From positions 101,248,001 through 101,312,000 of the forward strand of contig CM059431.1 of NCBI GenBank assembly GCA_030390025.1: 64,000 nucleotides of DNA. Direction: 5' to 3'. How positions within the stretch are numbered: position 1 is the stretch's first letter; each line of letters starts with the position of its first letter. Below the pieces are notes generated by a model that was not told the origin of the DNA, searched no databases, and worked only from the letters and a program-made list of their open reading frames with translations. The position numbers were made by a program, and so were the translations under genes. Of this stretch, positions 15,526-48,134 are shown in pieces. Source of the DNA: Squalus acanthias (lineage: Eukaryota).

Positions 15526-15539
15526 CCAGAGAACAGGTG

Positions 15540-19970: not shown

Positions 19971-20080
19971 TTAATTTAAAATTTTTTTTAAAAAAAATTA
20001 TAGCGCCTTTCACGACCTCAGGATATCCCAAAGCGCCTTACAGCCAATGAAGGACTTTTATTTTTGAAGTGTGGTCACTG

Positions 20081-25399: not shown

Positions 25400-25790
25400 A
25401 AACAACAACTTGCATTTATATAGTGTCTTTAACGTAACAAAATGTCCCGAGGCGCTTCACACGAGCGATTATCAAACAAGATTTGACACCGAGCCACATG
25501 AGATATCAGGTCAGGTGACCAAAAGCTTGGTCAAAGAGGTAGGTTTTAAGGAGTGTCTTAAAAGAGGAGAGAGAGGCAGAGAGGTTAAGGGAAGGAATTC
25601 CAGATCTTAGGGCCCAGGCAACTGAAAGGTGGAGCGATTAAAATCAGGGACGCGCCAGAGACCAGAATTAGAGGAGTGCAGAGATCTCGGGGGGGTTGTG
25701 GGGCTGAAGGAGATTACAGAGATAGGGAGGGGGCGAGGCCATGGAGGGATTTGAAAACAAGGATGAGAATTTTTAAATTGAGGTGTTACA
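25400..25790 (-). mobile_element. L2-like LINE 3' fragment
   Basis: caacaacttgcatttatatag tail; similar to 43048-43700. Confidence 0.7.
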
Positions 25791-26919: not shown

Positions 26920-27395
26920 CTGTTGCAATGAAGCTCAACACAACCTCATATTTCGATCAGGCACGCCTTCCAGCCTCAACATTGAGTTCAACAACTTCAG
27001 ATCATAACCACCGCTCCCATTTTCTCGGACAGCAGGTGCTGGGTAATGGTTCTACCGTAACCATTTACACCTCCTCTGGACACATCTTTTGTTTCTTTAC
27101 TTGTCCCATTACCACCCCCGTTTTGCCTCGCACCATCATCCCTTTTGTCAATGAATCACTCCTGCCCTCCCCGCTATCAGACCTTCCCTTTTCTTCCTTC
27201 CTCCCCTCTCCCTGCCTCTGTACTTGCTTCTAAACTGTTAAATCTCCAACTTCTTCCAGTCCTGATTGAAGGTCATCAACCTGAAACGTTAACTCTGTTT
27301 CTCTCTCCACAGATGCTGCCTGACCTGCTGAGTATTTCCGACATTTTCTGTTTTTATTTCAGATCTGCAACAACCGCAGTGTTTTTTGCTTTTGT
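26920..27395 (+). mobile_element. Penelope-like 3' end with decayed hammerhead motif
   Basis: ctcaacattgagttcaacaacttcaga (ORF end), then pLTR-type sequence with cctgaaacgttaactctg. Confidence 0.75.
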
Positions 27396-27844
27396 TGATT
27401 GGGACTATTCCTTTTGTAATGACACTGACCGGCAGCACATCGAAGCCTGTGCCCTGCACCAGTGATTTGCAAGGAATGCAACAGATGTTGCTGCCTCTCA
27501 CAATAGTGACACAGTGCGACTGCTTCTTGAAGGCCCTCTCCAAAGCCAACAACCGAGGGAGCTTCAAATCTGGTCCTGACGCCTCTCGACAATGCACGAG
27601 AATCACAACCGAAAATGTATCCCTCAATAACAGCAACTTGCACTTATATAGCGCATTTAACGTTGTAAAAAGGCGCTATATAGATGCAAGTAGTAGTTGT
27701 TGTTCTCAGGGACAACAGCTTCACTGAGGCAAGAGGCTTCAGAGGAATCTTGACCACATAGACTTTAGGAGTTCAATTCTGTGAATGCTTGCAAGATAGT
27801 GAACTTGGATAATAACATGTGACTTTTGTATTCTAGAGGCAAAG

Positions 27845-28977
27845 TACGAAAATATACCCTATTCTTATATGTAGGATTAGGATTTGGTTTAATCTCATAT
27901 GATTAAGGCTTACGCTTTCTTTTCACTTACAAATAGCTTGTAGACTTGTACTGTAGCTAGAAATAATAAAATCGTCAATGCAGCTCATTCCTAGAATGCT
28001 TCTGGGTATGAATGCCATTTAGCAAGAAAAGGCTTTGTCAGCAAGGAGAGGTCTTTTGTTAGCAAGGAATGATGAGTAAGGGGGTCAGCAGTCTCCCAGA
28101 TAAGAGGGTAGCCTACATTGCAAACAAACAAGACAATGATCAACAGATCAGAAGGATATACTTTCCTTAGAGGCGGTGCGACGAAGGTTCACTAGATTGA
28201 CTCCTGGGATGAGAGGGTTGTCCTAGGAGGAGAGATTGAGTAGATTGGGCCTATACTCTATGGAGTTTAGAAGAATGAGAGGGTGATCTAATTGAAGCAC
28301 ATAAGATTCTGAGGGGGCTTGACAGGGTAGATGCTGAGAGGCTGTTTCCCCTGGCTGGGGAGTCGAGAACGCGGGGCATAGTCTCAGGATAAGGGTTCGG
28401 CCATTTAGGACTGAGATGAGGAGAAATGTCTTCCCTCAGAGGGTTGTGAATCTTTGGAATTCTCTACATCAGAGTGCTGTGAATGTTCAGTCGATGAGTA
28501 TATTCAAGACTGAGATCGATAGATTTTTGGACTTTAGGGGAATCAAGGGATATGGGGATTGGGCGGGAAAGTGGAGTTGAGGTTGAAGATCAGCCGTGAT
28601 CTTACTAAATGGTAGAGCAGGCTTGAGGGGCTGTGTGGCCTACTCCTACTCCTAATTCTGATGTTCTTATGAAACTAAAAAACTCGGAAACTGAAAAACA
28701 ACCCCTATCACACCATAATAAATCATCAAGGTTACAAGGATGGGTGTGCGTGACTAGAGCCCTATAAAGATCTTAAGCTTTTTTTCACAATTCGTAGAGA
28801 GAGACGAGAACAAAAGAATCGACGATGGTTACGTTCTCTACTCAGAGCGAAAGCGGGTAATATTGTTTATTTCTCTGTATGACTATTGCTTAAGACATTG
28901 AGCGTGTCAAGGCTTGGTCAAACTCAATAAAGATTATTTGCAACCAAGAAAGTGGTACCAAGTCTAAGATCCTTACA
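27845..28977 (+). mobile_element. LTR-like element (left end unclear) interrupted by a CR1 3' fragment (~28170-28670)
   Basis: Shares blocks with 31768-32582 (ggattaggatttggtttaatctcatatgattaagg; gggtaatattgtttatttctctgtatgacta); AATAAA at ~28926; ends ...ccttaca. Confidence 0.6.
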
Positions 28978-29419
28978 TCCTCACCAACGCCAACAACTGA
29001 GGAAGCTTCTAATCTGATTCCGACATGAGAATCGCAACCAGAAGTGGATCCCTCAGGGGTCAACAGCTTCACTGAGGCAAGAGGCTCCAGAGGAATCTTA
29101 CTAGCCACCCACCTCTCGTCACTTGTACCTTGTAGAAGCAGTTGATTAGAAGTTCACGCAAGGAGAGGGCAAGAAATTACTGGAACTTTTTCTTCAATTT
29201 TGTTCTGGAAAGTAAATTTTTTTGACCACATAGACTTTTGGAGGTCAATGTTGTGAATGTTTGCAAGATCGTGAACTTGGATAATAACATGTGGCCTTTG
29301 TGTTATAGAGGCAAGGTTCAGAAGCCTTTAGGAATGCAGATTTTTCTGAGGCGGTCGTGGATGGGGAGAGGAACAAGCAAGAGGCAAAAGAAATTTGGTT
29401 TCTTCACTTTTATTTCTTG

Positions 29420-30050
29420 AAAACCCTTGGCTATAAGTCACTGCCCTCTTTCTCTAGCTGCAGGCTGCTGGCTCTCTTGCTCCATTTCCTTTGCTCCCTG
29501 TGCAGCCTCCTCCTGATATGAAGGTGAGAATCCTTTCTATCTTCATCATCATCCCTTCCAGCTTCAGGGAGTAGCAACATTTGCCGCACAGTGATGTTAA
29601 GTTGGATCTGGCAAGCTACAATGATCTTGGAGATTCTCGCTGGGCTACAGTGCAGGGCTCCACCAGATTTAACCAGGCACCTAAAACAAGATTTTCAGAA
29701 TCCCAATGGTCTGCTCCATCACAGTTCTTGTAGTCCCAAGGGCTTCATGATATTTGTTCTTCCCCTCTGTCTGCAGATGCCATGTTGGAGTCATAAGCCA
29801 TAACTACAAGAATAACCCTGATCCCTAATCAATTGTCCTGATGCAGGGTTTTGATGCATCAGGGCTGGTATGGTGGGTTGTCACATGAAGTAGAGCTTCC
29901 AGGATAGTGGGCATAAGCACGCAGAATGAGGTGAGTGGCATCTTACCACAAGCTGCAAGCTAACTGAACGAAACCCTCTCCTATTCATGAAATTCAGAGG
30001 GTTGTCATATGGGATGTTCAGTGCCACACGAGTTGTATCAATTGTTCTTA
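29420..30050 (-). pseudogene. Decayed PIF/Harbinger (HARBI1-like) DDE transposase, C-terminal half
   Basis: Hand translation with frameshifts: TIDTTRVAL, MNRRGFRSVSLQLV, AHYPGS, DQGY, WLMTP, TRTVMEQTIGILK, RCL, SGGAL, IIVAC, acidic tract, LIAKGF. Confidence 0.8.
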
Positions 30051-30244
30051 CCACTTTAGCTCAGATTCTGCAACACAGCGATGGGCTGATATCGGTATAG
30101 CTCCATTGGGTATAGATCTCTGCGCTCCTCCAATTCTGGCCTCTTGAGCATCCCCGATTTCCATCGCTCCACCATTGGCGGCCGTGCCTTCAGCTGCCTA
30201 GGCCTTAAGCTCTGGAATTCCCTCCCTAAACCTCTCCGCCTCTC

Positions 30245-30670
30245 TAGCTCAGTGGGTACGGGTAGCAAAGTGATCCAGTAATTTAGTAATCCAGAGGCCT
30301 GGACTAATGATCCAGAGACATGAGTTTAAATTCAACCATTTATTTAAATTCAGTTAATTAAATCTGGAATAAAAAGCTAGTATCAGTAATGGTGACCATG
30401 AAACTACCGGATTGTCATAAAAATCCATCTGGTTCACTAATGTCCTTTAAGGTTCGGAAATCTGCTGCTCTTACCTGGTCTGGGCCTATATGTGACTCCA
30501 GACCCACAGCAATGTGGTTGACTCTTAACTGCCCTCTGAAATGGCCTAGCAAGCCACTCGGTTGTATTCAAGGCGGCGGCTCGCCACTACCTTCTCAAGG
30601 ACAATTAGGGATGGGCAATAAATGCTGGCCTTGCCGGCGATATCCACATCCCGTGAATGAATTTTAAAAA
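30245..30670 (+). mobile_element. SINE-like element sharing its 3' tail with the second LINE family, inside an L2-like fragment
   Basis: tagctcagtgg head; tail gggatgggcaataaatgctggcc; L2-like sequence on both sides. Confidence 0.6.
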
Positions 30671-31767
30671 AAAGCCTCTCTCCTCCTTTAAGACCCTCCT
30701 TAAAACCCACCTCTTTGACCAAGCTTTTGACCATCTGTCCTAATATGTCCTTATGTGGCTAGTTATCAAATTTTGTCTGATTACGCTCCTGTGAAGCGCC
30801 TTGGGACATTTTACTACATTCAAGATGCTATATAAATACAAGTTGTTGTTATTGTTATTGTTGGCTCTTTCCCCAACGTATGGTTAAGGGCAAACAGCGT
30901 GGTACCCGTCAATTTGGTCCCACGTTCTGTGCTGTAGTCCGTTGAACCAACTATCACACTATTACCACAATTGTGAATTTTAAAGAAGCAAATATCTCTG
31001 CTAGGAGATCAGCAATTGAGTTGGAGAAGCCATTAAACTAAAACTGTCTAGCCAAAATGATTTCCCACATGAAAGCTTTTCGATACAGTAAGAAATTGCT
31101 TGCACCACAATACGGTGCAGTAGACAGTGTTCTCTAGCCACAGTAATTGCTTCTAGATAGCTTTGTTTATAAAGGTGAAACCATGAGCTTGCATTCTGTG
31201 GTATAGCTGGCATGGAATGAGTCAAAAATATTGACACAAACATGCACCTCTCGTATTTATGTTCATCCATTGCTAACTAAAGTGCCTGCATTATCAGTTA
31301 TTACGATGGCTTCAAATCTCATTCTTCAGCATTGCTTCTGGTGCCATCAACCCTTCCTTGACCTCTCACTTTGTGTAAGCTATTTCTCATATCTCTAACC
31401 TTCCTTCCCCTCTACATGGTCCTGAAATGCATCACTGCCACCAAATGATGCGCTCACCTCTACTGACATTCTCGGTCACAGTATCTTCAAACTATTTTCT
31501 GTGAGGGCTCTGGACAAAGTCACAGATGCCATCCTGTACGACTCCAAATACACTCACTGATCCACCTCATCCTTTCCACTGCTTTCTACATTATTGACCA
31601 CTCCATCTTCCTCCACCACTCTCTTGTAGCTCCATTTCTGCCTGTCCTAATTACAGTCATCACAGCTCCTCAAATGGTTTCTCCTGCTGTTACTGTATGG
31701 TCACCTCTGGTATCTTCCAGGGTTAAATTGCTGATTCCCTTCTATTCATTATGCATGTGCTATCCCT

Positions 31768-32582
31768 TGTAAGATACCGTATTTCTGTATACATATATAC
31801 GTGGGATTAGGATTTGGTTTAATCTCATATGATTAAGGTTTCTGTTTTATTTTTTCTCAGAACTAGCATGTAGATTTGCACTGTAGCTAGAAATAATGAA
31901 ACGGTTAAATTGTTCATTCCCAGGATTAACATTCCCTACAGGCTACGCGGCCACGCAGTTCTCTGCCGGTCCTGCGCAGCCCGGGACCGGCTTTTGCAAC
32001 GTTAAAGTTCGCGCATGCTCGAAATTGTGAATGGGCCGCGCACCCAAAAAAAAATGATGGGGTACATTGCCCAGGATGTGTTAGGGTTTAATGTATCCGG
32101 GTACAATGCAGCTGACTGTGCTGTATGTTTTCTGCTGAGCGACAGGATGTGTGATTCATGCAATTGATTTGACTTTGTCAATACATTGGGAAACGAGATA
32201 GTCTTGAAATAGGAAACAGGACAATGGGCTCAAGATAATTCGTTCCATGCTCAATGGCAAAAAAGTTGGCATCTGGTGTTTTGTAGGAACTACCTCATTT
32301 CTGGGGGGTCTTGTTCACAATAACACTTATCGTGCCATAATGAATCAGCAAGGACAGTGTGCGTGACTAGAGGCCTATGAAGCTTTCCTTCACAATTTGT
32401 CGAGAGTCATGATCAAAAGGATCGCTGAAGGTTATGTCTCTATCCAGAGGGCAACGGGGTAATATTGTTTATTTCTCTGTATGACTACTCCTTAGAGACA
32501 TTGAGTGTGTCAAGACTCGGTCGAACACAGGAAAAGGTTTACATTGCAACCATATTTGGTGTCAGATTTGAATTCTCTTATA
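31768..32582 (+). mobile_element. Solo LTR
   Basis: Ends TGTAAGA...TCTTATA; 4-bp TSD CCCT on both sides; sits in an old LINE RT fragment. Confidence 0.75.
31927..32069. mobile_element. hAT-type MITE
   Basis: 8-bp TSD CCCAGGAT; ends taacattccc / ggggtacattg; same family as 59640. Confidence 0.85.
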
Positions 32583-33464
32583 CCCTTCAGTAAGATTAGC
32601 AACAAACACTGGGTAAGTTTTCATAGAGGTGCCGACGACAGCCAACTTTACCTCTTCGCTAGCACCAAGACTGTTGCAGAAATTCGAACTGCCTGTACAA
32701 CATGAAATCATGGATGAGCATTAACTTGCTAATCCTTGTGACTTATTGAAAAGTTAAACGTTTTGGACACCATTGCAAAAATCTGATGCTGTTACAGATT
32801 AAGCAATGTCAATCCGAGGTGCAAACTCCCACTTCTTACAGATGATTAAGAAGCAACCCAGGATCACAACAGACAACAGCTTGCACGCTGAATAATTGTC
32901 TGGTACTGAAATTAAACAGAGGAACAACCATCTCGAAACCAGACAATGCTGTTGAAAACGGGACATGCTTAGAGACTACAGTAAATTAAAATTGCCACCA
33001 GAAGTTTAAAATCATGAAGGGTTTAGATAGAGTAAATAAAGAGAAACTGTTTCCAATGGCTGAAGGGTCAATAACCAGAGGGCCCAGGTTTAAGGTGATT
33101 GGCAAAAGAACCAGAGGAAAAACCTTTTTATGCAACAAGTGGTTAGGATTTGGAATGCACTGTCTGATAGGGTGGTGGAGACAGATTCAATAGTAGCCTT
33201 CAAAAGGAGAAAAAAATTGCAAGGATATGGGGAAAGAGCAGGGGGGAGTGGGACTAACTGGATTGCTCTTTGAAAGAGCCGGCACAGACTCTATGGGCAG
33301 AATGGCCTCCTTCTGTGCTGTACTATTCTATGATTCTCTGAAGTTCCCCAACAGGTTTTGGTCTCGTTGACAAGAGAAACAAAGCAATGCGGAGATTGCG
33401 GAGGCAATTAAATCTGACAATAGACAAAGTGATTGAGTCCGACATCAGACAAAGTGACAATTAA

Positions 33465-33813
33465 AAACAGAACAAGCTGGAAACACTCAGCAGCTCAGGC
33501 AGCAGCTGTGGAGAGAGAAAAAGAGTTAATGTTTCAGGTCGTTGACCTTTCGACAAAAGTTAGAGATGTAACACGTTTTAAGCAAGTGCAGGGGCAGAGA
33601 AAGGGGGGAGGGGAGGAACGAACAAAAGAGAAGGTCTGTGATTGGGTGGAGGGCAGGAATGATTAAATGGCAAAAGGGGGTGGTAATGGGACAAATAAAG
33701 AAACAAAAGATGGGTCAAGAGGAGGTGTAAATGGGAACAGCAGAATGATTAACAGCACCTGCTGTCTGAAAAAATGGGAGCGGTGGTTATGGTCTGAAAT
33801 TGTTGAACTCAAT
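33465..33813 (-). mobile_element. Penelope-like 3' end (continues ~35306-35340)
   Basis: tctgaaattgttgaactcaat | gttgagtccggaag split by a MITE. Confidence 0.8.
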
Positions 33814-35305
33814 GTGCCGTATTTTGCGACCCCTACGGGTGCATACCAGGTGTGTACACGCCCATAGGGGCCGCGCAAGTTCTGGGTTTAGGCATGCGAA
33901 GCGCATTCGCTAAAACCCAGAACTTGCGATGTCAAGAATCCTCTTGACAGATCCTCCGCATCCCCAGGAAAAGAGCCTCCACAGGCGGAGATTTGCGCTA
34001 TTTGCCCAACTTCCGCCCACTGAATGCCCGTGAAATTCTTACGCCTGGTAAAAGCAGGCATAAGGCCTGCTTTTACCAGCATAAGAGTTTTAAAAAATAG
34101 AAAAAATAAAATGTTATCACTCATTTATACATTTAAAAACCCTGTCCAATAAGGTAAGTTTATTTTTAGCCCCGTTAAAACATATTGGCCCAGAAATTGA
34201 TCTCGCTCTGTTCCCGCGGGGGTAAGGCTTCCCCGCGATCTCTCACTCCGCGTGTGCTTTTTCAGATCCAGCTCGCACGAACTTGATGTTCCAGACATCA
34301 GCTGGGCAGTGCTTGCGTATCCCACCGGCGTAGTGAATTCGTGCGAGCTGTGGGATCACGTGACTCAGTTAGAGCCAATGGCAGCACACCATCTTCCATT
34401 CATAAGTTTCACATACGTGCTGTGAAATCTATGAATCTTACACCCCCCCAAAATAACAGCTAAACAAACCTCAATTAAATTAAAAAAAAAAACCATCACA
34501 TTAATAAAATAAGTATAGTTAAATAAATTAACCATTTTAAATAAAAAATAAAATTTTTGAAAAAATTTAAAATCTTTTAAAAAGTTATAAAAATAAACTT
34601 ACCTGTCTTTAAAGTCTCTAAAAAAGATATACCTGTTAAAAAAAATTCAAAAAAATACTTAATTCACTACTTACCTTGTTAAAAGTGGGTCTTACTCCTC
34701 CTTTTTCCATTTCTAAAATCTTCCGTACTTACCTGCGCGTCCAAAGCACGAAGTGCACAGCGTGCGCGCAGCCTGTAGCGCGCACGCGATGCACCGAGGA
34801 ACCGCCCCCTTTTCAAAAGACCAAGTGCCGGTTTTCAGCGCATGCGCAGGGCATGCAGAAAACCGGCAATTGGAGAGAGAATACGCGAGAGTATGCAGTG
34901 CGTACTCTCGCGTCGCGGGATGAATTTTTGGCCCATAATTTTTTCTTCAAAAAATTAAATTCATTTAAAATATTTAATTAAAAGGCATTTTAATTAATTT
35001 TAAATTTGTAATTTAAATTTTTTTTATTTCATGTGTTGGTGTATTTTTTTTTTAAGTGATCCCCATTCATACTTATGGGGATTCCGTACATACGCAACTC
35101 CCGTAAGTATGAATGGGGATTCCCTTCTTTTATTGGTTGGGCCGGCCCACGTGATCCCAGGGGCGCTCGCGAACTGCCTGCACCCTGGGATACGCGGAGA
35201 GGCCCAGGATCGCGAGTCTCCGCACCTCCAGGTAAATGCGTAGACTTTTTATTACAGGTCGGAGGCATCTGCCCGCGGGAAGCCTCCGATCGCAAATTTT
35301 GGGCC
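33814..35305. mobile_element. Harbinger-like MITE hosting a second MITE
   Basis: Ends gtgccgtattttgcga / tcgcaaattttgggcc; TSD AAT. Confidence 0.85.
34187..34934. mobile_element. Harbinger-like MITE, nested
   Basis: Ends ggcccagaaattgatc / gatgaatttttggccc; flanks att/ata; close paralogue of 52802-53545. Confidence 0.88.
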
Positions 35306-35480
35306 AATGTTGAGTCCGGAAGACTGTAAAATGCCTACTCGAGACAATTAAGAGGCATGGGAAGTAGTGGAGTCTGTCAACAAACAAGGTCATGATGCGG
35401 AGATGCCGGTATTGGACTGGGGTGGACAAAAGTGAGAAGTCGCACAACACCAGGTTATAGTCCAACAGTTTTATTTGAAA

Positions 35481-35518
35481 TCACAAGCTTTCGGAGCTGC
35501 TGCTCCTTCGTCAGGTGA
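35481..35518 (-). ncRNA. Minimal hammerhead ribozyme motif (family B), intact core
   Basis: Minus strand: tcac-CTGACGA-a-ggagc(agca)gctcc-GAAA-gc-tt-gtga. Confidence 0.72.
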
Positions 35519-38500
35519 AGTGAAGGAATACGAATCGGCAAAGCATATATAGACAGAGAACAATGCCTGTGCAGCGTACAATGTCAGACGACTACAGTTA
35601 ATCTTTCTGACTGCCTTTTATCACACCTCGGCAGAGAGACAATCAGGTCAGTCAGGAAGGCATTATATCAAAGACATAGCAAGATACAACTAAGACAATG
35701 AGGTGGGGTCACAGGGGGTCTAATGTGTCAAATGCTTCAGTCTGTATGGAAAACCATAAACTTTAAAATTTTTACTTTTTTTTTTACTGGAAATCACATC
35801 TGTGAACAAGCCAACGATGACTCGAGTCTGGATGACTCTACGTCATGTAACGTGACATGAACCCAAGATCCCGGTTGAGGCCGTCCTTAACAAACAAGGT
35901 GATTGAGAAGAATAATTAAGACAATAGAATTGTGAAACAAAGGCAGGACATGTCGGTCTCAATGTTGCCTCTAATTTTTTTTTATACTCAGCGGGCCACG
36001 AACTCCTTTGAGCGCAAGCTTTTCGTCCGCGGACAAATTCTACAACAACAACTTTTACAACGACGACAGCAACAGCAACCACTTCAAAGCATATACGCAG
36101 TAATGCCGTATTGCCACCCCACCGTCTCAAATCATGAGACAATCAGACAAGGTTCTATACAAGTTTAACAGAACTTCTCTGCTTTTGAATTCTATTCCTC
36201 TAGAAATGAGCCCCAGTGCTTTATTTGCACTTTTATGGCTTTTTAAACCTGCGTTGCTACTTTTAATGATTTGTGAATCTATACCCTTAGATCCCTTCGC
36301 ACCTCTACTCCATTTAGACTCTTATTTTCCAAGGAGTAGGTAACCTCCTTATTCCTCCTACCAAAATGCACCACCTCACATTTACCTATATTGAAATTCA
36401 TTTGTCATTTACATGCCCATTCTGCAAGTTTGTTTACGGTAGAATTAATAAAAAAGCTTTTAGTTCGTCATGGACAAACTCCATTTAAAAAAAAATTACT
36501 TGTCAGAAATGACTGGGATATAAAAGAACTGCATAATAATGCATTAACACTTCAGAAACGTCACTCAGTTACACGGTTATGCATCGACAAACAATCCAAA
36601 AGTCCGTGGCGCTAACGTGCTGTACATCCACATAAGTGATTAGAATATTAAGCACAATGCAATCAGACAACCAACAAATATAAAGTGCTGTAGTTCTTTA
36701 GTTCACTGTATTAAAAAGAATTGAACAAAAACGGGTATCTGTATTTTCAACTTCAATCACTTCCATTAATAAACGTGGTCTTCTTGAACCAGCACACCCC
36801 CCCATGTAACATGTCAGAAATGCAGCACTTATTCACAAGTGCAGAAAAACACATACACATTTTGCGTCACCGAATTAAAAACAAAAAGCAGGAAAAGCTA
36901 TGATTTAACAGAAATAAACATTCATCTTTCTTCCTGGACAGGAGACCCAATCAGACTGACTTGGAAATGATTACTAATATGTTGACATAAAAATGTTAAT
37001 TTACAAATTTTGCTTCTAATGTTTTTCTCTCAAACATTTGCCACAATATTAATCCCTGCTCTTATCATGAAAAGTGTTGAATTATTTTAGGCACTTCGCA
37101 ATTAAATAGCGGGAAACAAACGTCATTGTACTTCAATTTTTAATCTCCTATTTCAAACATTTATACCAAGTCGAAATTGTACATTATCAGTTTAATCGAA
37201 GTATTTTCTGCGTCTTTCTCAATAAACAAACAGTGGTTTCTTCTAATTTTTATACATCATTACATAACTCTTGTTTCTATTAACACTCAACTAAACGTTT
37301 AAGAGGAAATCTATATTTACATTACTCCTGAGACTTGTTCGGACTATTGAATGACAAAATAAAATGGTTTGTGTTTTTCCCCTTTTTTGGTTCTCTTCCT
37401 AAACGTCTTAATGATATTTTTTAAAAGTCAATAAAAACTAATATGTAATTCCTACAAATCCTCCCCTGCCCTCCCCCTCCTCAACAGCATGGTTGCATGT
37501 TTGTGTAAAGCCACTCACTTCAGTTGATCGTTCAAAATCAAATATTGAGAAATTTCAATTTTAAAACATTTTAAGCAATTCAGAGCCTCTTTAAAAGTGT
37601 TTGGACTTCAAGACCTGGTTGAAACTTGTTTAGATGAGGGGAAAATTGATTTTTGCTTGCTTCTTCCAAAATCATATTCGAAACTTAGGGGGGAAAAAAA
37701 GTGTTTTTAACACTCATTTTTTGGGAAACGTTCATTAAAAATTCTTTCAAGTCTCATTACAGCTTTGACAGAAGAAGTTGCTCCAAGTTTCTCTTTCCCT
37801 CTTCAATGCTGTCGTTAAACATACAACAAAAAAACCAAAACTCTATTCACTTCTTATTTGAGTTGTGTTTGGAGTTAAAGTGGTTAAACTTCCGAAGAAG
37901 GCGGTGAGGTTATCTATCCCCAGCCTTGGCGATGAGTTGGGATCAGTTTTGGAGAAGTTGTTTCCTCTTTTTCTGCTGCCGTTCCCTCCGTCTCTCACAG
38001 ACCCTGAGGTACAAACGGGGGTGCAAGCTTTTTCCCCTCTCTCATAACATGATTTAAATAACCCTGATAAACTCTTTCAAAAAGAGAACAACACCTGGCA
38101 AAATTTAACTGGAACTTACTGCGGGACATTCATCATCACTTTCCTGTATTTTTCCGGCTTTAAACAATTTTCCGAATGTAAACATTTTTTTCAGTGCCTA
38201 AAAATAGTTTGCTTTAGCCTCCTTCCAGCAGCCATTGTACCTGTGCTGCGCCTCCACCTGTGCTGTTCCAAAGTGCGACCACCGCTCAGTCCCCAGGGAT
38301 GGACTACACGCGCCTGGACTCTACGCGCCTGGACTCTCACCCCTCTCCCTCTGACCCTGTCTCTCGCTCTCCCTCCGACTGTCTGTCTCTATCCCAGTCT
38401 CGCTCTCTCTCTCTGTCCCTGTCCCTCTCTCTGTTTCACTGTCTCTCTCTCTGCAAAGAACATCGGAGCAAAAGGAGAAGCAGAGAATCAGTGTCAGCTC

Positions 38501-39509
38501 AGGAGCAAGCTCCACTCCCATTTTTTTAAACATTTAAAATCCAGTCAATGTTGAAAAATGAGAATTCTTTCCCTCTGAGGGGAAACGCTTCTTGACAATG
38601 CTTTCCTATTTGTGCTTTTGTGATAATGAGGGTGCTCATATCAGACCCCAGCTCCACTAACCTGTTCGCAATTAATTGAATGCCCTTAGTGTCCCAGCTC
38701 AGTGTAATCCTGAGCGATAACTGGCTGCAGGTTTCAGAAGAGACGATTAAATGAGGCCCTGTTGGTGGATGTTGAAGATTTTTTTTACTGCTATTGTAAG
38801 AAGCGCAGGGAAGCTCTCTCCCCCAGTCTCTCTCCCCCCTAGTCTCTCTCTCCCTCAGTCTCCCCCTCCCCCCTAGTCTCTCTCTCCCTCAGTCTCACTC
38901 TCCCCCAGTCTCTCTCCCCCCTAGTCTCTCTCCCCCCCGAGTGTCTCTCTCTCTCATTCCTCCAGTCTCTCTCTCCCCTTGGTCGACCGGGTGTGATCAT
39001 CGCTAAGACTGGGTAGGGAACTGAGAGAGAGAGAGACAGAACGAGCGTGTCAAATAAGTGAAACCAGAGATACAATGGCGTTGGCATATCACAGGGAACA
39101 GTTGATAGATAGCCTGACAGAGAAAACAGGCGCGCCTGGGGCGACGGACATCCTAAAAATAAGTTGGCCGACGGAGCACACTTGTGTGCCTCACAGTGTA
39201 AAAAGCAAAGAAAAAAAAGAAACTTAAAGTTGAAACCGACACGGAAGTTTTCTGTGCCGAGAATAATAAAACACAAGATTTGTTGAGTGAAAGGAACCTT
39301 AAAGAAATGCTGGAATTTCAGTCTGTGTGAAAGTGCATGTTCAAGTGTGGAGGTTTCCCTGACTTTGAATGATTAAGAAATTACAGTATTCCTTTTGTCT
39401 GAAAGTCTGTCATTAAAAGAAAGTGTCTGTTATGTTTGTTTTAGCTCCACCCACATTTCTGTGCAGAGCCGAAAGCCTTTTAACCCTTTGTAATCTTGTC
39501 TTGGATTTT

Positions 39510-40615
39510 GGAAGTCTCTCTCTCACCCCCCAGTCTCTCTCTCTCCCCCCCCAGTCTCTCTCTCTCCCCCCCCCCNNNNNNNNNNNNNNNNNNNNNNNNN
39601 NNNNNNNNNNNNNNNNNNNNNNNNNNNNNNNNNNNNNNNNNNNNNNNNNNNNNNNNNNNNNNNNNNNNNNNNNNNNNNNNNNNNNNNNNNNNNNNNNNNN
39701 NNNNNNNNNNNNNNNNNNNNNNNNNNNNNNNNNNNNNNNNNNNNNNNNNNNNNNNNNNNNNNNNNNNNNNNNNNNNNNNNNNNNNNNNNNNNNNNNNNNN
39801 NNNNNNNNNNNNNNNNNNNNNNNNNNNNNNNNNNNNNNNNNNNNNNNNNNNNNNNNNNNNNNNNNNNNNNNNNNNNNNNNNNNNNNNNNNNNNNNNNNNN
39901 NNNNNNNNNNNNNNNNNNNNNNNNNNNNNNNNNNNNNNNNNNNNNNNNTCTCTCTCCCCAGTTTCTATCTCTCTCTCCCCAGTTTCTATCTCTCTCTCCC
40001 CAGTTTCTATCTCTCTCTCCCCAGTTTCTATCTCTCTCTCCCCAGTTTCTATCTCTCTCTCCCCAGTTTCTATCTCTCTCTCCCCAGTTTCTATCTCTCT
40101 CTCCCCAGTTTCTATCTCTCTCTCCCCAGTTTCTATCTTCTCTCTCCCCAGTTTCTATCTCTCTCTCCCCAGTTTCTATCTCTCTCCCCAGTTTCTATCT
40201 CTCTCCCCAGTTTCTATCTCTCTCTCCCCAGTTTCTATCTCTCTCTCCCCAGTTTCTCTCTCTCCTCCCCGTCTCTCTCTCTCTCCCCAGTTTCTATCTC
40301 TCTCTCTCTCCCCCCCATCTCTTTCCTCTCTCTCTCCCCAGTCTCTCTCTCTCTCCAGTCTCTCTCTCTCTCTCTCCAGTCTCTCTCTCTCTCTCCCCCC
40401 CCGTCTCTCTCTCTCTCTCTCTCCCCAGTCTCTCTCTCTCTCTCCTCCCCGTCTCTCTCTCTCTCCCCAGTTTCTATCTCTCTCTCTCTCCCCCCCATCT
40501 CTTTCTCTCTCTCTCCCCGTCTCTCTCTCTCTCCAGTCTCTCTCTCTCTCTCTAGTCTCTCTCTCTCTCTCCCCCCCCCCCCCTCGTCTCTCTATCTCTC
40601 TCTCCCCAGTCTCTC
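39510..40615. repeat. CT-rich satellite, 21-bp unit ctctctctccccagtttctat, degrading to (CT)n; contains the gap
   Basis: Tandem copies 39949-~40255; related sequence at 38814-38980. Confidence 0.92.
39576..39948. other. Assembly gap (373 N)
   Basis: Run of N. Confidence 0.99.
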
Positions 40616-42383
40616 GAGGTAACTGCGCGGCTGCGCAGCTTAGGGGGAACAGTAGACGGTCTGATGAGTCACGAGATCGGTGCACCTAACCTCAATTGAC
40701 ATGAACGAAGCCTAAACTATCAATCATTGAGGCCTAATAAATGGTACTCATACCCCAACCGCCAGAATGTACAAGAGGAGGATATCGGGGAAGAAAAGAA
40801 CACTACAGTCAGAGGGTAAAGCAACAGGAGCTCGCCTCAAGAAGGAGGACACCATTGAAGACGACGCAGTAGCCTTGAGTGCAACGGACTGATGACGCGG
40901 TAGAACTCAAAGACCTCTCTCTACTCAGAAAGGTTGTATGAACTTGTGCCAACCATTTAAATAAAGTTGTTTCGCCTTAAAATGACTTGTTCGTGTCGTA
41001 CTTTACCCAAGTTATGGTGTAGAGCTTAGCAACCCTTTGGACTGGTGTTGGATTGTGTAGACAAACCGTACAAGCTCAATGTTGGCAACACTGAAGCCAT
41101 CCTACTTAGCTCTGCCCAGAACCTATGGGCTTCTGGCACCAACTCAACCAACGTTCCTGGTGGCTCCTTTATGCTGAACCCAGTAGAACACAATCTCGGC
41201 GCTCTGTTCAACTCTGAGCTAAGTGTTCTGCCCAACATCCATTTTATCGCAAAGACTGCCTTCCTCCGCCTCCGGAATATTCCCTAGCTCACCCCCTTTG
41301 CCAATGATCATGTGGACGATTCATTTCTCAAATGCTCTCCTCACCAATCTCCACTCTCAAGCTTCAATTAATTCAGAACTGTATCCTCTCTTGCACAAAT
41401 ACAGTCACCCATTACCCCCATTCTTGACCAGAGCCATTGGCTCCTTTCCTCCAGAAAATCAACACCAAAATTCTCACCTACATTTTCAAATCCCTCTACG
41501 GCCTCACCCTACTTTATTTGGGAAATCTTCTCCAGTCATATATTCCAGCCCAAACCCTCTGCTCCTCTGAAAAGGTTACTGCTTGTCCTGTGTACTCCAC
41601 ACTTCACCGTTACAGGAGAGTTTGCCATTGCCTTCTGAGATTCTCTGCCAAAACCACTTTGCCTGCCTACATCTGTCCAACCCTTCACAAACCTTCAAAA
41701 AACCTGTGCCCTACAAATATGCCTTTGAGCTCCCACTCTTGGCAATGTCTGACTCACTGCCCAGTCCACTTTCCTCTTGCGAAGTGCGAATGCATTCTTC
41801 TACCTGAGGAGTGCTACATAAAAGGTTGTTGGTGCAAGTTTCACAATACAGTACGCTAAAAATGTAAAGTCAGATTTATATCATAGTTAGTAGCTAAAAA
41901 AAATAATTCCATTGTCTATTTTTCCCCCTCGGTCAATTTTCTCTCTTCCTGAACTATTGACTTCTAGCTGGGGCACAATTCAGGAGAAAGCTCAGAGAGA
42001 GTCAAGAGACCGAGGCAGGGAGAGATAGAGAGATGCATGCAAAGAAAATAAAGAGTATAAATGGCAAGTTTTGTAAATTAGCATAATTTAAGGTGGAGTG
42101 TGGGAGAGATTCCTTCTCGTGTCCTCTGCGACCTGGCCTTTGACAATGAGAGGGAGCACCACAATTGACCCCAATCTTGTCCCCATCCCATGGGAACTAG
42201 TACAATACAGGGCCAGTAATAAGCTGTGCAGTCCATCTTGCCCAAACCTAAAACCCAAAACCACACAATTTTCATATCCTCAAAAACTTCTCCAATTTTC
42301 TTTTAATTTTTCTCCCTGGGAAGACCATTCCATCTGTTCACCACTGTTACATAAAGCAGTAAAGTGTGTGCACTTTACAACTT

Positions 42384-42812
42384 GTGTCAGCTGTGGCTCA
42401 GTGGGCAGCACTCTCGCCTCCAGAGGCAGAAGCATGAAATCCAGGCTGACACTCCCAGTGCAGTACCGAGGGAGCGCTGCACTGTCGGAGGTGCCATCTT
42501 TCGGATGAGACGTTAAACTGAGGCCCCGTCTGCCATCTCAGGTGGATGTAAAAGATCCTGTGGCAGTATTTCGAAGAAGAGCAGGGGAGTTCTCCTGGAG
42601 CCAATATGTATCCCTCAACCAACATCACTAAAAACAGATGATCTGGTCATTATCACATTGCTGTTTGTGCCGTGTGCAAATTGGCTGCCGCATTTCCTAC
42701 ATTACAACAGTGACTACACTTCAAAAGTACTTCATTGGCTGTAAAGCGCTTTGGGACGTCCTGAGGTTGTGAAACGTGCTGTAGAAATGCAAGTTCTCTT
42801 TTTCTTTCTTCC
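42384..42812 (+). mobile_element. Deu-domain tRNA SINE with an internal deletion in the head
   Basis: gtgtcagctgtggctcagtgg head, Deu core and tail. Confidence 0.85.
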
Positions 42813-43047
42813 TGGTGCACTCAGGAAGTGAGGCTGGGGAGATAATCAGGAAGAAGAGGTGGAGCAACTATTTAAGGTGGCAGCAAGTGCTTTGGCGTAC
42901 GACAAGGAGGTTCACGAGTTGTATCGGAAAGTGTGAAAAGAATGGGGAGACCAGTACAAAACTGGTCAGAATAACTAACATAGACCGATCCATATAGGTG
43001 ACACAAAATGCAAATGGAGGGACGATTTGACCACTGTGTCTGTATAA

Positions 43048-43700
43048 CCAACAACAACAACTTGCATTTATATAGCGCCTTTAACGTTGTAAAACGTCCC
43101 ACGGCGCTTCACAGGAGCGTTATCAAACAAAATTTGACACCGAGCCACATATTAGGACAGGTGGTCAAAGAGGTAGGTTTTAAGGAGCGTCTTAAAGGAA
43201 GAAAGAGATGTAGAGAGGCGAAGAGGTTTAGGGAGGGAATTCCAGAGCTTAGGGCCGAGGCAGCTGAAGGCACGGCCGCCAATAGTGGAGCAATGAAAAT
43301 CGGGGATGTGCAAGAGGCCAGAAAAGCAGGAACGCAAACATTTCGGCTGTAGGGCTGAGATTACAGAGATAGGGAAGGGACGAGGCCACGGAGGGATTTG
43401 AACACAATGATGAGATTTTAAAATCGATGCGTTGCCGGACTGGGAGCCAATGTTGGTCAGCGAGCACAGGGGTGATGGATGAATGGGACTTGGTGCGAGT
43501 TAGGACATGGGGCAGCAGAGTTTTGGATGAGCTCAAGTTTACAGAGGGTGCAAGGTGCGATGCCGGCCAGGAGTGGGTTGGAATAATTGAGTCTAGAGAT
43601 AAAAAGACATGGGTGAGGGTTTCAGCAGCAGATATGCTGAGGCAGGGACAGAGATGGGCGATGTTACAGAGGTGGAAGTAAGCAGTCCTGGTGATGGAGA
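43048..43700 (-). mobile_element. L2-like LINE 3' fragment
   Basis: HWLPVRQRIDFKI and GGRAFSCLGPKLWNSLP on minus; (caa)n tail. Confidence 0.8.
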
Positions 43701-43817
43701 GGAGAAGAATGCAAGAGCACTTCAAGCGCTGACCACTATGCTAAAATTACTGGTCAAATCCACATTAATTGTTAATATAGGATAATATAAAACCAATGGA
43801 AGCACAACAACTATATG

Positions 43818-44547
43818 AGCCCAGATATTCCGATCGCAGGCCTCCCGCGGGCGGAGGGCTACGATCTGGAAAAATCTGCGCCAAGACTGGAGGGCTCCCG
43901 GGAGGCGCAGAGTTCCGCTGCTGGGCCTCTCCAAACTGCCGGTGCGCAGGGCCCACGTGTCCCGGGGCGCAGGCAGTTCGCAGCGTCCCTGGGATCACGT
44001 GGGCCATGGGGAGCCAATCAGAGAAGGGAATCTCCCTTCATACATTTGACAGGAAGACCTGTCAAATATATGAATAGAGATCGCCCCCAAAACATAGAAA
44101 AACTTCAAATAAATTTTTTTTAAATCACATTTTTAAAATGACTTTAAATTACAATAAACAAATATTTTATTTTTTGAAAAAAATAATGAAAGTTTTTAAC
44201 GGGGCTAAAAATAAACTTACCTTTCTTTAAAGTATTTTTAAATGATAAATCAGTGGAAACATTTTTAAAAAACTTTTTTCAACTCTTATCCTGGTAAAAG
44301 CAGGCCTTACACCTGCTTTTAACAGGCGTAAGAATTGTAAGTGTTTTCTGCGGGCGGAGGGTCTCCAAAAAGCGGAACTATCCGCCCGCAGAGGCCCTTC
44401 TCTCGGGCAGGCGGAGCATCTGTCAAGAGCTTTCTTGACAGATCGGAAATGCTGGTTTCCAGCGCATGCCTGAAACTGGCATTTCCGATGTCCCTACGGG
44501 TGAGTACACAGCGCGTACACACCCATAGGGATCGGAATTTCTGCACC
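43818..44547. mobile_element. Harbinger-like MITE
   Basis: Ends agcccagatattccgatc / gatcggaatttctgcacc; TSD ATG. Confidence 0.88.
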
Positions 44548-45254
44548 ATGATGTTCATTAAGAGTCATAAGACCTGAAAATTTAACCCTACCTTCTCTGT
44601 ACAGCTGCCTCCGGACCTGCTGAGTGTTATCAACATTTCATGTTTTTATTTCAGATTTCCATCATCTGCAGTATTTTGCTTTTTAATTATATGAAACTAT
44701 GTTTAATATATCATTCTTTAAGCAATTTTTAAAAGGATCATTAATTAGCGAACTGAAAAGCAGAGAAGCTATGTTAAACTTGGTTAATTCAGAGCCTTGC
44801 TTAGATCACTCAGAGTACTGGGCACAGTTCTGGTCTCCATATTATAAAAAGGTTGTAGAGGCACTGGGAGAAGGTGAAAAAAAAGATTTACCAGATGTTA
44901 CAAGAACTGAGAGATTATAACTATCAGGAAAGACTGAGCAGGCTGGGGGTCTTTTGAGGGGTGACGTCATAGAAGCCTTTAAGCTTATGTAAGTTATCGA
45001 TAGGGTCGACATAGAGAAGATGTTTCCACTTTGCCGGGGGTTGGGGGGGAGGGGGAGACCAAAATTAGGGGCCATAAATATAAGCTAGTCACTAATAAAT
45101 TCAATAGGCAATTCAGGAGGAACTTCTTTACACAGAGAGCGGTGAGAACGTGGAACTCGCTACCACAAGGAGTAGTTGAGGTGAATAGCATAGATGCATT
45201 TAAGGGAAAGCTAGGTAAACACATGAGCGAGAAAGGAAGAGAAGGTTATTTATT

Positions 45255-45895
45255 TTTATTCGTTTATGGGATGTGGGCGTCGCTGGCAAGGCCAGCATTT
45301 ATTGCAAATCCTAAATTGCCCTCGAGAAGGTGGTGGTGAGCCGCCTTCTTGAACCGTTGCAGTCCGTGTGATGAAGGTGCTCCCACAGTGCTGTTAGGGA
45401 AGGAGTTCCAGGATTTTGACCCAGCGACGATGAAGGATCAGCGATATATTTCTAAGTGAGGATGGTGTGTGACTTGGAGGGGAACTTGGAGGTGGTGGTG
45501 TTCCCCTGCGTCTGCTACCCTTGACCTTCTTGGTGGAAGAGGTCGCGGGTTTGGGAGGTACTGCCGAAGAAGCCTTGGCGAGTTGCTGCAGTGCATCTTG
45601 TAGATGGTACACACTGTAGCCACGGTGTGCCGGTGGTGGAGGGAGTGAATGCTTATGGTGGTGGATGGGGTGCTTTGTCCTGGATGGTGTCGAGCTTCTT
45701 GAGTGTTGTTGGAGCTGCACTCATCCAGGCAAGTGGAGAGTATTCCATCACACTGCTTACTTGTGCCTTGTAGATGGTGGAAAGGCTTTGGGGTGTCAGG
45801 AGGTGAGTCACTCGCCACAGAATACCCAGCCTCTGACCTGCTCTTGTAGCCACAGTATTTATGTGGCTGGTCCAGTTAAGTTTCTGGTCAATGGT
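45255..45895 (-). mobile_element. Second LINE family, 3' RT fragment
   Basis: ORF 45653-45853 has IYKAQVSSVMEYSPLAW; paralogue at 62085-62705. Confidence 0.8.
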
Positions 45896-46997
45896 TATGC
45901 TGATAGGGTGAGATGAAGAGGGGTGGGAGGAGGCTTGAGTGGAGCACGGACCAGTTGGGCTGAATGGCCTGTTTCTGTGCTGTAAATTCCATGCAGTATC
46001 AATGTCACAAGAATGAGAAGTCGCACAACACCAGGTTATAGTCCAACAGATTTATTTAAAATTACAAGCTTTCGTGCGACTTCTCATTTTTGTCCACCCC
46101 AGTCCAACGCCGGCATCTCCGCACAATGTCACAAAAAGCATTACTGTAACCTTAAATTATGTTAATGCAGCATAAGGAGCAACCCACCAAAATGAATGAG
46201 AGAATGTCGAGTTTTACGCACACTGACTGTTATCAGTTAAAACCGTTAGGTTTCTGTGTGGGTGATGCAAATCATTACCACATGCAAATTGAAGGTCTGG
46301 CTTCAAGGAAGGTGTGGGAGGGGAACGGCACTGGGATGTGATAAGGGACCTGATGGGGAAAGTGGAAAGAGTGAGCTCAGACAATGGCGTGAAAGTGCTA
46401 CGATTTATCTTAAATGTGAGATCATCTTTGAGCTGCGTTTCGTGGAAAAGTCAACAAAGAGGGGTGAATTATCTCATCAACATGACGTATCCTCCTAAAT
46501 TATCATCTTACTTTATGGTATTGAAAGCATAATTATCTCCACCTCCAGCAATCTTTTTTTTTAATGTTTTCATTCAAACTAGGGGACCATAAATATAAGA
46601 TAGTCACTAATAAATCCAATCGGGAATTCAGGAGAAACTTCTTTACCCAGAGAGTGGCGAGAATGTGGAACTCGCTCCCACAGGGAGTGGTTGAGGCGAA
46701 TAACATCAATGTATCGTCGCTGGGTCAAAATCCTGGAACTCGCACCCTCACAGCACTGTGGGCGTACCTTCACCACACAGACTGCAGCGGTTCAAGGCGG
46801 CGGCTCACCACCACCTTCTCAAGGGGCAACTAGGGATGGGCAATAAATGCTGGGCCTTGCCAGCGACGCCCACATCCCGTGAATGAATAATTACATTAAA
46901 AAAGGGCCATGATGCGGAGATGCCAGTGTTGGGCTGGGGTGGACAAATGTGAGAAGTCGCACAACACCAGGTTATAGTCCAACAGCTTTATTTGAAA

Positions 46998-47034
46998 TCA
47001 CAAGCTTTCGGAGCGCTGCTCCTTCGTCAGGTGA
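46998..47034 (-). ncRNA. Minimal hammerhead ribozyme motif (family B), intact core
   Basis: Minus strand: tcac-CTGACGA-a-ggagc(agc)gctcc-GAAA-gc-tt-gtga. Confidence 0.72.
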
Positions 47035-47354
47035 AGTGACTGACGAAGGAGCAGCAGCTCCGAAAGCTTGTGATTTCAAATAAAGCTGTTGGACTATAAC
47101 CTGGTGTTGTGCGACTTGTCACATTAAAAAAGGGGGGGGAAGCTCGATGAGTACACCAGGGAGAAAGGAATAGAAGGTCATGCTGATAGGGTGAGATGAA
47201 GTAGGGTGGGAGGAGGCTCGTGTGGAGCAGAAACACCAGCATGGATCAGCTGGGCCGAATGGCCTGTTCCTGTGCTGTAAAATTCTATGCAATTTACCTG
47301 CCTGTCTTGGGATGGTAATTGTGACAGATAGGAATAGAAACGCCATGACGTGAG

Positions 47355-47835
47355 AATCATAGAATCATAGAAGATAGGAGCAGTAGGCCGCCATTCGGCC
47401 CCTCTAGCCTGCTCCACCATTCAATGCGATCATGGCTGATCATCCAAATTCAGTACCCTGTCCCTGCTTTCTCCCCATATCCCTTGATCCCTTTAGCCTT
47501 AAGAAATATATCCAACTCCTTCTTGAATATATTTAATGAATTGGCCTCTACTGCCTTCTGTGGCAGAGAATTCCACAGGTTCACCACTCTCTGGGTGAAG
47601 AAATTCCTCCTCATTTCTGTCCTAAATGGCTTACCCCTTATCCTTAAGACTGTGACCCCTGGTTCTGGACTCCCCGACCATCAGGAACATCCTTCCTGCA
47701 TCTAGTTTGTCCTGTCCTGTCAGAATTTTATAAGTTTCAATGATATCCCCTCTCATTCTTCTAAACTCCAGCGAGTATAAGCCCAATCGACCCAATCTCT
47801 CTTCATATGTCATTCCTGCCATCCCAGGTATCAGG
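47355..47835 (-). mobile_element. Young CR1 3' fragment
   Basis: Nearly identical to 4480-4945. Confidence 0.9.
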
Positions 47836-47888
47836 GGAAGGGATTAAAAACTGGAACTTATACCATGCACTGTCGCAGTGATAATTAC

Positions 47889-48134
47889 CTGCCGTCGATG
47901 CCTCCTGTTGTTCTGGTTAAGCTGGGCCAGCATGAGTTGCTGATCCAGTAGTTCCGTCCTCTGTTGTCTCTGAATATCCAGGGTTGCACCCATTCCTAGG
48001 GGAGTCTCATGGACGGGGACAGCCGACGAAAAGAGCGGTTCCAGGGTGAACGAGGCACATCTGGCTGCCCACTTTGGTACACACAGCAATTGCTGTACCT
48101 TCAGCACATTATAGTGGTAAACCAGTCCAGAAAG
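47889..48134 (-). CDS. UBAC2: UBAC2 internal coding exon (LSGLVY...GMGATLDIQRQQRTELLDQQLM...RRQ)
   Basis: Acceptor ttttctctcctgcag, donor gtaatt, 246 bp, phase 0; matches recalled UBAC2 TLEPIFSS...GMGATLDIQRQQRMELLDRQLM; splices in frame to 10036. Confidence 0.95.

Follow-up and report, generated by a model that had tools for sequence, protein, structure and literature searches.

The sections of Craig et al. (2021, PMC8557442) compared here describe a characteristic insertion signature of Penelope-like elements (PLEs): strong 5′ truncation, partial tandems that form pseudo-long terminal repeats (pseudo-LTRs), a hammerhead located in the pseudo-LTR, an inverted and 5′-truncated copy adjoining the 5′ end, and a tail of 30–40 bp at one end only. 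According to the main-text portion of PMC4209133, single minimal hammerheads of this kind show no detectable cleavage, and dimers cleave at a low level in vitro. For a PLE of Anolis, the compared part of PMC11167929 reports a hammerhead that is stimulated by the element's own protein and depends on it for cleavage in vitro, and finds that no RNA-seq reads start or end at the hammerhead cut site. The hammerheads of retrozymes have been proposed to derive from PLE pseudo-LTRs, in a preprint whose compared portion samples one chondrichthyan, for retrozymes only (bioRxiv 10.64898/2026.07.22.740005). Here we describe how a stretch of 64,000 nucleotides from the shark Squalus acanthias (assembly GCA_030390025.1, contig CM059431.1, positions 101,248,001 to 101,312,000; this whole stretch is referred to as the window) compares with these systems. 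Its minus strand carries two hammerhead motifs, near 35.5 and 47.0 kb, within one intron of the gene UBAC2. Both are best read as minimal hammerheads in the 3′ pseudo-LTR of a PLE family, denoted family 1, which are carried as passengers in the UBAC2 intron; we put the probability of this reading at about 90%.

Direct reading of the minus strand from 35518 to 35481 gave UCAC-CUGACGA-A-GGAGC-AGCA-GCUCC-GAAA-GC-UU-GUGA, and reading from 47034 to 46998 gave the same motif with the loop AGC. The two intact minimal hammerheads named in the original prediction are thereby confirmed at the sequence level. In hammerhead numbering, both sites provide a helix I of 4 bp (UCAC/GUGA), the core C3–A9 followed by one extra A, a helix II of 5 bp closed by the G10.1–C11.1 pair, and G12–A14. 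Nucleotides A15.1, G15.2, C16.2 and U16.1 are not connected by a loop and form the palindrome AGCU, i.e. a vestigial helix III, while U17 stands ahead of GUGA, with cleavage predicted before GUGA. The proposed assignment to the type I minimal hammerheads of the Penelope-like kind, with their palindromic vestigial helix III, likewise holds, and the motif is literally part of PLE copies (see below).

The original prediction had named a covariance-model search for hammerheads as a check. Run here with Rfam, this search detected neither site: the whole window gave no match at gathering thresholds, and around both sites a relaxation to E ≤ 10 returned no hammerhead family, but a chance match to PK-repZ and sub-threshold matches to microRNA precursors that arise from a hairpin (see below). 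As Rfam stays silent even at E ≤ 10, the motif is not a canonical member of the hammerhead class by the Rfam models. This silence, together with the shortness of the minimal descriptor, would be compatible with the view that both motifs are chance matches to a loose descriptor that adopt no ribozyme fold. The counts argue otherwise. A window scan with a pattern of core and palindrome, CTGANGA-N8-30-GAAAGCTT, yielded four matches compared with 0.02 expected, and four matches were reached in 0 of 100 shuffles. Reversed-pattern controls, both strict and relaxed, gave 0 matches in the 3.71-Gb Squalus acanthias assembly, in which all genome counts were made. Considering in addition the fixed position of the motif within the PLE pseudo-LTR and the covariation of all three helices between two PLE families, as described in the following, a chance origin is vanishingly improbable. 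Another repeat has two copies in the window, at 8951 and 1110 (−), that carry CTGAGGA followed by a stem and GAA, with neither a matching helix I nor the palindrome; as parts of an unrelated repeat, these probably match the core by chance.

The covariation evidence derives from a second abundant PLE family of the same genome (family 2), which was detected with another PLE-like open reading frame (ORF) of this genome as query. Over 651 residues, its ORF for reverse transcriptase (RT) and endonuclease (EN) shares 34% identity with that of family 1. Of 18 family-2 loci, 10 contain a minimal hammerhead of the form AGUU-CUGAYGA-A-AGGUC-loop-GACCU-GAAA-CG-UU-AACU. It lies on the ORF strand in nine of these ten, and shares the architecture of the family-1 motif with different helices. 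Eight family-1 and ten family-2 sequences were aligned, and pairs were counted for the named structure. In this alignment of 18 sequences, 99% of the 198 cells pair, compared with 12–47% in slid controls, which breaks down into 100% of cells for helix I and 97.8% for helix II. Both-sided changes are observed in 9 of 11 pairs, comprising 4/4 in helix I, 4/5 in helix II and one at the palindrome centre. The palindrome changes from AGCU (family 1) to ACGU (family 2), with CG in place of GC as its central pair in 8/18 sequences; the core columns and the bulged A are invariant in all 18. Variation within family 1 adds to this picture. The helix GGAGU/ACUCC takes the place of GGAGC/GCUCC in 267 genomic copies with at least three loop backgrounds, and inspection by eye of the first 100 relaxed matches listed showed that all five helix II pairs are kept, as Watson–Crick or G–U pairs, in 96. 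Covariation with family 2 supports the fold, and the motif can be classed as an ordinary minimal hammerhead of PLEs. Two family-2 hammerheads are found in the window itself (Table 1), both of which deviate from the family form beyond helix II, the match at 9652 with GAAAUGUU and that at 50932 with GAACCGUU. A distance of about 220 nt separates the former, on the antisense strand, from the UBAC2 exon 9908–10039.

The anatomy of the autonomous family-1 element was read from a natural copy on the minus strand of locus L068. Here, the upstream pseudo-LTR is partial and contains a hammerhead (3395..3366); a 91-nt leader and the ATG at 3274 follow. The open frame comprises 921 codons (3361..596, measured stop to stop) and gives way to a 3′ untranslated region (3′ UTR) of about 315 nt, a further hammerhead (281..252), about 50 nt, a tail of ~40 nt, and the flank. 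The two hammerheads are identical and in direct orientation, 3,114 nt apart on either side of the ORF. The cut site of the upstream hammerhead lies 91 nt ahead of the ATG, and the optional ~40-nt tail stops at the ATG. Tailed insertions therefore finish at, or a few bases from, the start codon (...CATCATG). The L068 ORF reaches 36 bits with the Pfam profile RVT_1 (cut-off 29.6), and the DKG motif is visible in IKPADKGGA. For the C-terminus, locus L065 (7305–7931) provides 208 stop-free residues that include a CX4CxxC linker as well as a GIY-YIG-like domain and run up to a stop codon; the motifs IVYLIRC...WYIGET are readable in this part of the family-1 protein. An ORF found elsewhere in this genome, with a score of 35.2 bits above the PF01541 threshold, shares 39% identity with it (E = 8e-16). 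When the genome was searched with the 208 residues, 150 of 56,779 candidates were scored and all were 94–100% identical, and 6 of the 150 scored ORF fragments lie within open frames of 919–921 codons. Judged by these sequence features, family 1 is an endonuclease-positive PLE with a single ORF, in which the reverse transcriptase is followed by a C-terminal GIY-YIG endonuclease.

A number of other assignments were considered along the way. An apparent non-autonomous unit of ~520 bp was dismissed as an artefact of the query, which was the truncated window copy, as longer copies extend into the ORF. At loci picked for the spacing of direct repeats (L031–L033), no PLE ORF was found between the hammerheads; the 536-codon frame of L033 is that of another RT. 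The genome search with the Pfam GIY-YIG profile (150 of 15,241 candidates scored) returned one locus, L034, where 1471–2466 (−) belongs to a third, decayed PLE lineage whose GIY-YIG domain is cut off from the RT C-terminus by a stop codon. Fragments related to it were found about a dozen times, mostly with stops. A family-1 hammerhead adjoins the L034 ORF and was rejected as a part of it, being a separate insertion with its own target-site duplication. When the window element was compared by blast with 30 loci of other PLE lineages, the only hit was L035, a locus that overlaps L034 and includes the separate insertion just mentioned.

Genome-wide, the strict hammerhead pattern matches 25,198 times (12,733 forward, 12,465 reverse), and the relaxed pattern, with helix II left free, 46,965 times (23,578 forward, 23,387 reverse); that the motif is a genome-wide repeat had been overlooked before. 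All 40 DNA matches that were scored are 98–100% identical over 341 nt. By these counts and identities, family 1 is a young and very abundant PLE family. The insertion signature was determined for 34 distinct hammerhead copies, taken from 30 genomic loci and the window. The ~40-nt tail is present in 16/34 copies and absent in 18/34, and upstream of the hammerhead there is an inverted arm within 120 nt in 15/34, the body of the 3′ UTR in 16/34, and neither in 3/34. Among the first 100 matches listed with the relaxed pattern, neighbours within 3 kb form 26 head-to-head pairs versus 2 tail-to-tail pairs; 52 of these 100 copies belong to head-to-head pairs within 3 kb, and one same-strand pair is spaced by 3,136 nt. 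This insertion pattern is the PLE signature described in the compared portions of PMC8557442 and PMC11167929. It should be noted that 1.5 kb of sequence, with the flanks of the PLE copy included, is shared at 99% identity between L013 and L016 (G000 C1, about 1.81 Mb and 2.45 Mb); the two represent a segmental duplication and not two independent insertions. Subfamilies of family 1 differ in loop 2 (e.g. G000 C1 33297 and 34507), and one large group has an 8-nt loop 2 with the palindrome AUCGAU, which could permit loop–loop pairing between copies.

Reading of the flanks in the window revealed four separate family-1 insertions, each with its own target-site duplication of 10–14 bp (Table 1), three of which are head-to-head inverted structures. 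A 24-mer from downstream of the motif has six occurrences in the window. The 35-kb copy keeps the last 15 ORF codons and the stop (35885..35838), encoding DGLNRDLGFMSRYMT in agreement with the ORF end in L065 and L068, and is 84% identical to the 3′ region of L068 over 496 nt. At 47 kb, a 5′ inverted arm without tail (47120..~47040) adjoins a sense arm with tail (~47039..46907). The intact plus-strand copy of the motif at this insertion (47040–47069) is placed 5 nt from the sense copy, with which it forms an inverted repeat, and had been overlooked before; in this arm, stem I has lost its native 5′ strand to the inversion junction (GTGA for TCAC). The 46.0-kb insertion holds half a ribozyme only, because its sense arm starts inside the hammerhead at GAAA. 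At 59 kb, the minus arm, which is in the UBAC2 sense, carries the tail and a hammerhead (59312–59349) in which core G12 is changed to A, and the plus arm contains an intact hammerhead (59359–59395, pattern match 59363–59391). A non-LTR retrozyme was rejected as the source of the motifs, since the copies at 35.5, 46.0, 47.0 and 59.3 kb are single or inverted and the family has an autonomous ORF.

Table 1. Hammerheads, family-1 insertions with their target-site duplications, and UBAC2 exons in the window.
Feature	Position	Strand	Remark
Minimal type I hammerhead, UBAC2 sense	35481..35518	-	predicted cleavage between 35485 and 35484
Minimal hammerhead, UBAC2 sense	46998..47034	-	predicted cleavage between 47002 and 47001; transcript copy predicted to be sequestered in a long hairpin
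Hammerhead core of the 47-kb inverted arm, antisense to UBAC2	47036..47073	+	pattern match 47040-47069
5′-truncated family-1 PLE copy, 498 bp	35391..35888	-	ORF end, 3′ UTR, hammerhead, ~40-nt tail
Target-site duplication ACCTTGTTTGTT of the 35-kb insertion	35889..35900 and 35379-35390	.	direct read
Family-1 PLE insertion, inverted type, 214 bp	46907..47120	-	sequence and flanks
Target-site duplication CCCTTTTTTAATGT of the 47-kb insertion, 14 bp	47121-47134 and 46893-46906		
Third family-1 insertion, inverted type, 114 bp	46011..46124	-	overlooked before
Target-site duplication TTGTGACATT of the 46.0-kb insertion	46125-46134 and 46001-46010		
Fourth family-1 insertion, inverted type	59220..59444	.	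upstream UBAC2 intron; overlooked before
Target-site duplication ATTCC[C/T]ATCTTC of the 59-kb insertion	59208-59219 and 59445-59456		
Family-2 minimal hammerhead (match 9652)	9648-9684	+	AGUU-CUGAUGA-A-(A/G)GGUC...GACCU; overlooked before
Family-2 minimal hammerhead (match 50932)	50900-50936	-	AGUU-CUGAUGA-A-(A/G)GGUC...GACCU; overlooked before
UBAC2 exon, 246 bp	47889..48134	-	tblastn, residues 187-268 of shark protein P0001
Next UBAC2 exon	9908..10039	-	tblastn, residues 268-311 of shark protein P0001

The host gene was identified from the frame 47847–48224 (−), which matches 79 UBAC2 proteins, the best being a shark protein with 95% identity. As the exons map to 48134..47889 and 10039..9908, both motifs are located in one 37.8-kb UBAC2 intron (47888..10040) and in the sense of the pre-mRNA. 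Protein matches and tblastn exon positions thus bear out what had been proposed about the gene, the strand and the shared intron, and the distance of ~850 nt given for one motif downstream of the 246-bp exon was measured for the 47-kb motif as 855 nt. The sequencing data consisted of 24 runs, all of them Logan contigs whose kind is guessed or unknown. Contigs of runs X1 and X5 cover 47888–48135 with 0 differences and carry non-genomic sequence on either side; these exon-exact contigs imply that UBAC2 mRNA spliced at this exon exists. In runs X1, X5, X19 and X23, the depth over 35000–48300 is mostly due to repeats, and no contig of this region settles the presence or absence of the insertions. 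The bin at 47.4–47.9 kb has the highest repeat depth among the mapped runs. Open frames on both sides of the UBAC2 exon, at 47631–47843 (−) and 48217–48462 (+), encode similar peptides (YEERL.RLGL.SLE.RR.RGD...), which by their sequence look like 3′ fragments of another retroelement family.

Beyond the motifs themselves, the original prediction proposed that the two intronic copies could dimerise in cis and cut the nascent UBAC2 transcript. Pairing would proceed via the palindromic helix III, and cutting of this kind would constitute a regulatory or attenuating device. Both cores are indeed intact, in the pre-mRNA sense and in one intron, and dimeric action is the accepted model for such hammerheads in the compared portions of PMC4209133 and PMC6765202. 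The energetics of the fold do not favour this proposal. With nearest-neighbour energies, which ignore the tertiary contacts of hammerheads, isolated segments of 48–50 nt fold into helices I and II at −12.9 and −11.6 kcal/mol, and a modelled double hammerhead, in which the helix I strands are exchanged and a trans helix III of 4 bp is formed, reaches −22.0 kcal/mol compared with −24.5 kcal/mol for two monomers, so that the trans helix adds no net stability. More severe is the situation of the 47-kb copy. The inverted arms form a near-perfect hairpin at about 47124..46947, the minimum free energy of the 191-nt stretch 46940–47130 being −155.7 kcal/mol (z = −27, with 0 of 200 shuffles folding as well), and forcing hammerhead helices I and II within this hairpin costs +51.4 kcal/mol. 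The inverted arm precedes the sense arm in UBAC2 transcription, i.e. the sense copy would be sequestered by an arm transcribed earlier. The 35-kb element folds no better than shuffles (z = −0.78).

The arrangement of the two copies offers little further support. They are 11.5 kb apart and belong to about 47,000 transposon copies. For an intron of 37.8 kb, 0.24 family-1 copies are expected per strand, the probability of at least two on a given strand is 0.024, and same-strand pairs are expected by chance in about 2,400 intron-length stretches genome-wide. Moreover, spliced UBAC2 mRNA contigs exist in two runs, and the dimer constructs described in the main-text portion of PMC4209133 cleave weakly. 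Cleavage by a cis dimer is therefore not supported and, going by the modelled hairpin, appears structurally implausible for the 47-kb copy; as a regulatory device of UBAC2 it is highly improbable. The 47-kb copy is locked in a hairpin, and the 35-kb copy stands alone as a monomer that lacks helix III. UBAC2 RNA is therefore not expected to undergo appreciable or regulated cleavage.

Alternatively, the hairpin could be the relevant feature and not the ribozyme, in that head-to-head arms give double-stranded RNA which is edited or diced, for instance with the effect of silencing the PLE family. The near-perfect pairing over about 47124..46947 and its z of −27 are in line with this view, as is the finding that 52 of the first 100 copies listed stand in head-to-head pairs within 3 kb. 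Rfam models of microRNA precursors match the hairpin as well, albeit below threshold and by shape only (best 53.5 bits compared with a gathering threshold of 90), and these sub-threshold matches reflect a generic hairpin shape. The compared portion of PMC8557442 describes such structures as a by-product of PLE integration. Overall, we regard a role of the hairpin as unlikely.

Some observations weigh against reading the motifs as ordinary PLE hammerheads and mere passengers. The Rfam hammerhead families (types I, II, III, HH9 and HH10) are not matched at either site, and the Pfam GIY-YIG profile does not directly match the 208-residue C-terminus of family 1, which has no Pfam match at all. The covariation comprises few independent events, because most of it stems from two lineages. 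The window also shows a mild local excess of family-1 copies, four being observed compared with 0.81 expected (P about 0.009, or about 0.05 when taken as three events). Finally, the sense copy at 35 kb keeps its core intact and, when modelled by itself without regard to tertiary contacts, adopts stems I and II. This lone copy might be cut at a low level or conditionally, via the PLE protein or via family RNA in trans. Such protein-assisted or trans-dimer cleavage is conceivable because frames of 919–921 codons exist and the Anolis protein stimulates cleavage; still, we consider the chance a slim one. A similarly small likelihood is given to the general case, namely that sense PLE 3′ ends in introns are cut in vivo when the family is expressed, with the PLE protein or abundant family RNA in trans acting in place of cis pairing. 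If this were true, thousands of host pre-mRNAs would be prone to premature cleavage under conditions in which the PLE family is active. The 35-kb UBAC2 copy would be one such site, and head-to-head copies such as that at 47 kb would be immune and would feed into double-stranded-RNA pathways.

Taking the motifs as PLE 3′ ends carried along in the UBAC2 intron, a coherent scheme can be put forward. Following the PLE literature, the hammerhead would serve the element itself by cutting its tandem or read-through transcripts, probably in dimeric form or assisted by the element protein. Reverse transcription would begin at either of two sites downstream of the hammerhead, giving insertions without or with the ~40-nt tail. 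With 3′ ends located beyond the cleavage site, the 3′ hammerhead of the template RNA has to have remained uncut. From an uncut template and downstream starts it follows that each insertion would inherit an intact hammerhead, however 5′-truncated or 5′-inverted it may be. The UBAC2 intron has gathered several insertions of a very active family, which are present in the pre-mRNA as passengers. For UBAC2 itself we infer little consequence, and the motifs should be masked as repeats instead of being treated as a gene-specific ribozyme switch. For PLE research, on the other hand, the family may be useful, being large and apparently recent, with about 47,000 hammerhead-bearing ends and a clear anatomy. 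With gene annotation, the genome would permit a well-powered test of whether PLE hammerheads cut RNA in vivo. A literature search for Penelope-like elements, shark and hammerhead ribozyme found no description for cartilaginous fish, although the supplementary alignments of PMC4209133 might hold such motifs. Within the range of that search, the motif would represent a known kind of hammerhead in a host group for which no description was found.

The comparison with known systems can be drawn as follows. Conserved intronic hammerheads of amniotes (Rfam HH9/HH10 type) are single-copy, occupy orthologous positions, have a stable helix III and are active as monomers. The shark motif resembles them in its location on the sense strand of an intron in a protein-coding gene, but differs in being part of a 47,000-copy repeat, in lacking helix III and in having no Rfam match. 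With 46,965 copies and a monomer devoid of helix III, a host-conserved regulatory hammerhead of the intron was rejected. Non-LTR retrozymes and animal satellite hammerheads, as far as described in the compared parts of PMC7229834 and bioRxiv 10.64898/2026.07.22.740005, are likewise of type I, with a weak palindromic helix III and tandem action. Retrozymes, however, form short head-to-tail arrays that yield circular RNAs, whereas the window holds no head-to-tail array, and its copies represent 3′ ends of an autonomous element in dispersed or inverted arrangement.

The Poseidon PLE of Anolis carolinensis (PAc) was compared as described in a portion of PMC11167929. As in the shark element, its hammerhead adjoins the ORF start, its insertions keep an uncleaved hammerhead, and it has two alternative 3′ ends about 40 nt apart, which are ascribed to two internal start sites of reverse transcription. 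The PAc ORF begins inside the hammerhead and the cut is located 26 nt downstream of the ATG, whereas the cut of the shark element lies 91 nt upstream and its tail stops at the ATG. Activity and protein assistance were put to the test for PAc. The general PLE architecture, as given in the compared sections of PMC8557442, is shared with regard to strong 5′ truncation, partial tandems forming pseudo-LTRs, the inverted 5′ copy and a tail of 30–40 bp at one end. The CX2-5CxxC linker of the Neptune/Nematis type and the DKG motif are both visible in the shark ORF.

The features of the shark motif match those of the minimal hammerheads of metazoan PLEs, for which the main-text portion of Cervera & de la Pena (2014, PMC4209133) was compared. 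Differences concern the length of helix II (5–6 bp in the shark, 7–8 bp in the Schistosoma families), the abundance, with about 47,000 copies compared with 4,000–9,000 for coelacanth and Xenopus, and the host, as cartilaginous fish are a group not named in that portion. Common to both are the type I topology, the CUGANGA...GAAA core, the 4-bp helix I, the extra unpaired nucleotide before helix II and the G10.1–C11.1 pair. A real helix III is replaced in both by the palindromic positions 15.2–16.2 (AGCU), the hammerhead occupies the same pseudo-LTR position flanking the RT-EN ORF, and thousands of dispersed single motifs are accompanied by opposite-strand pairs 100–700 bp apart.

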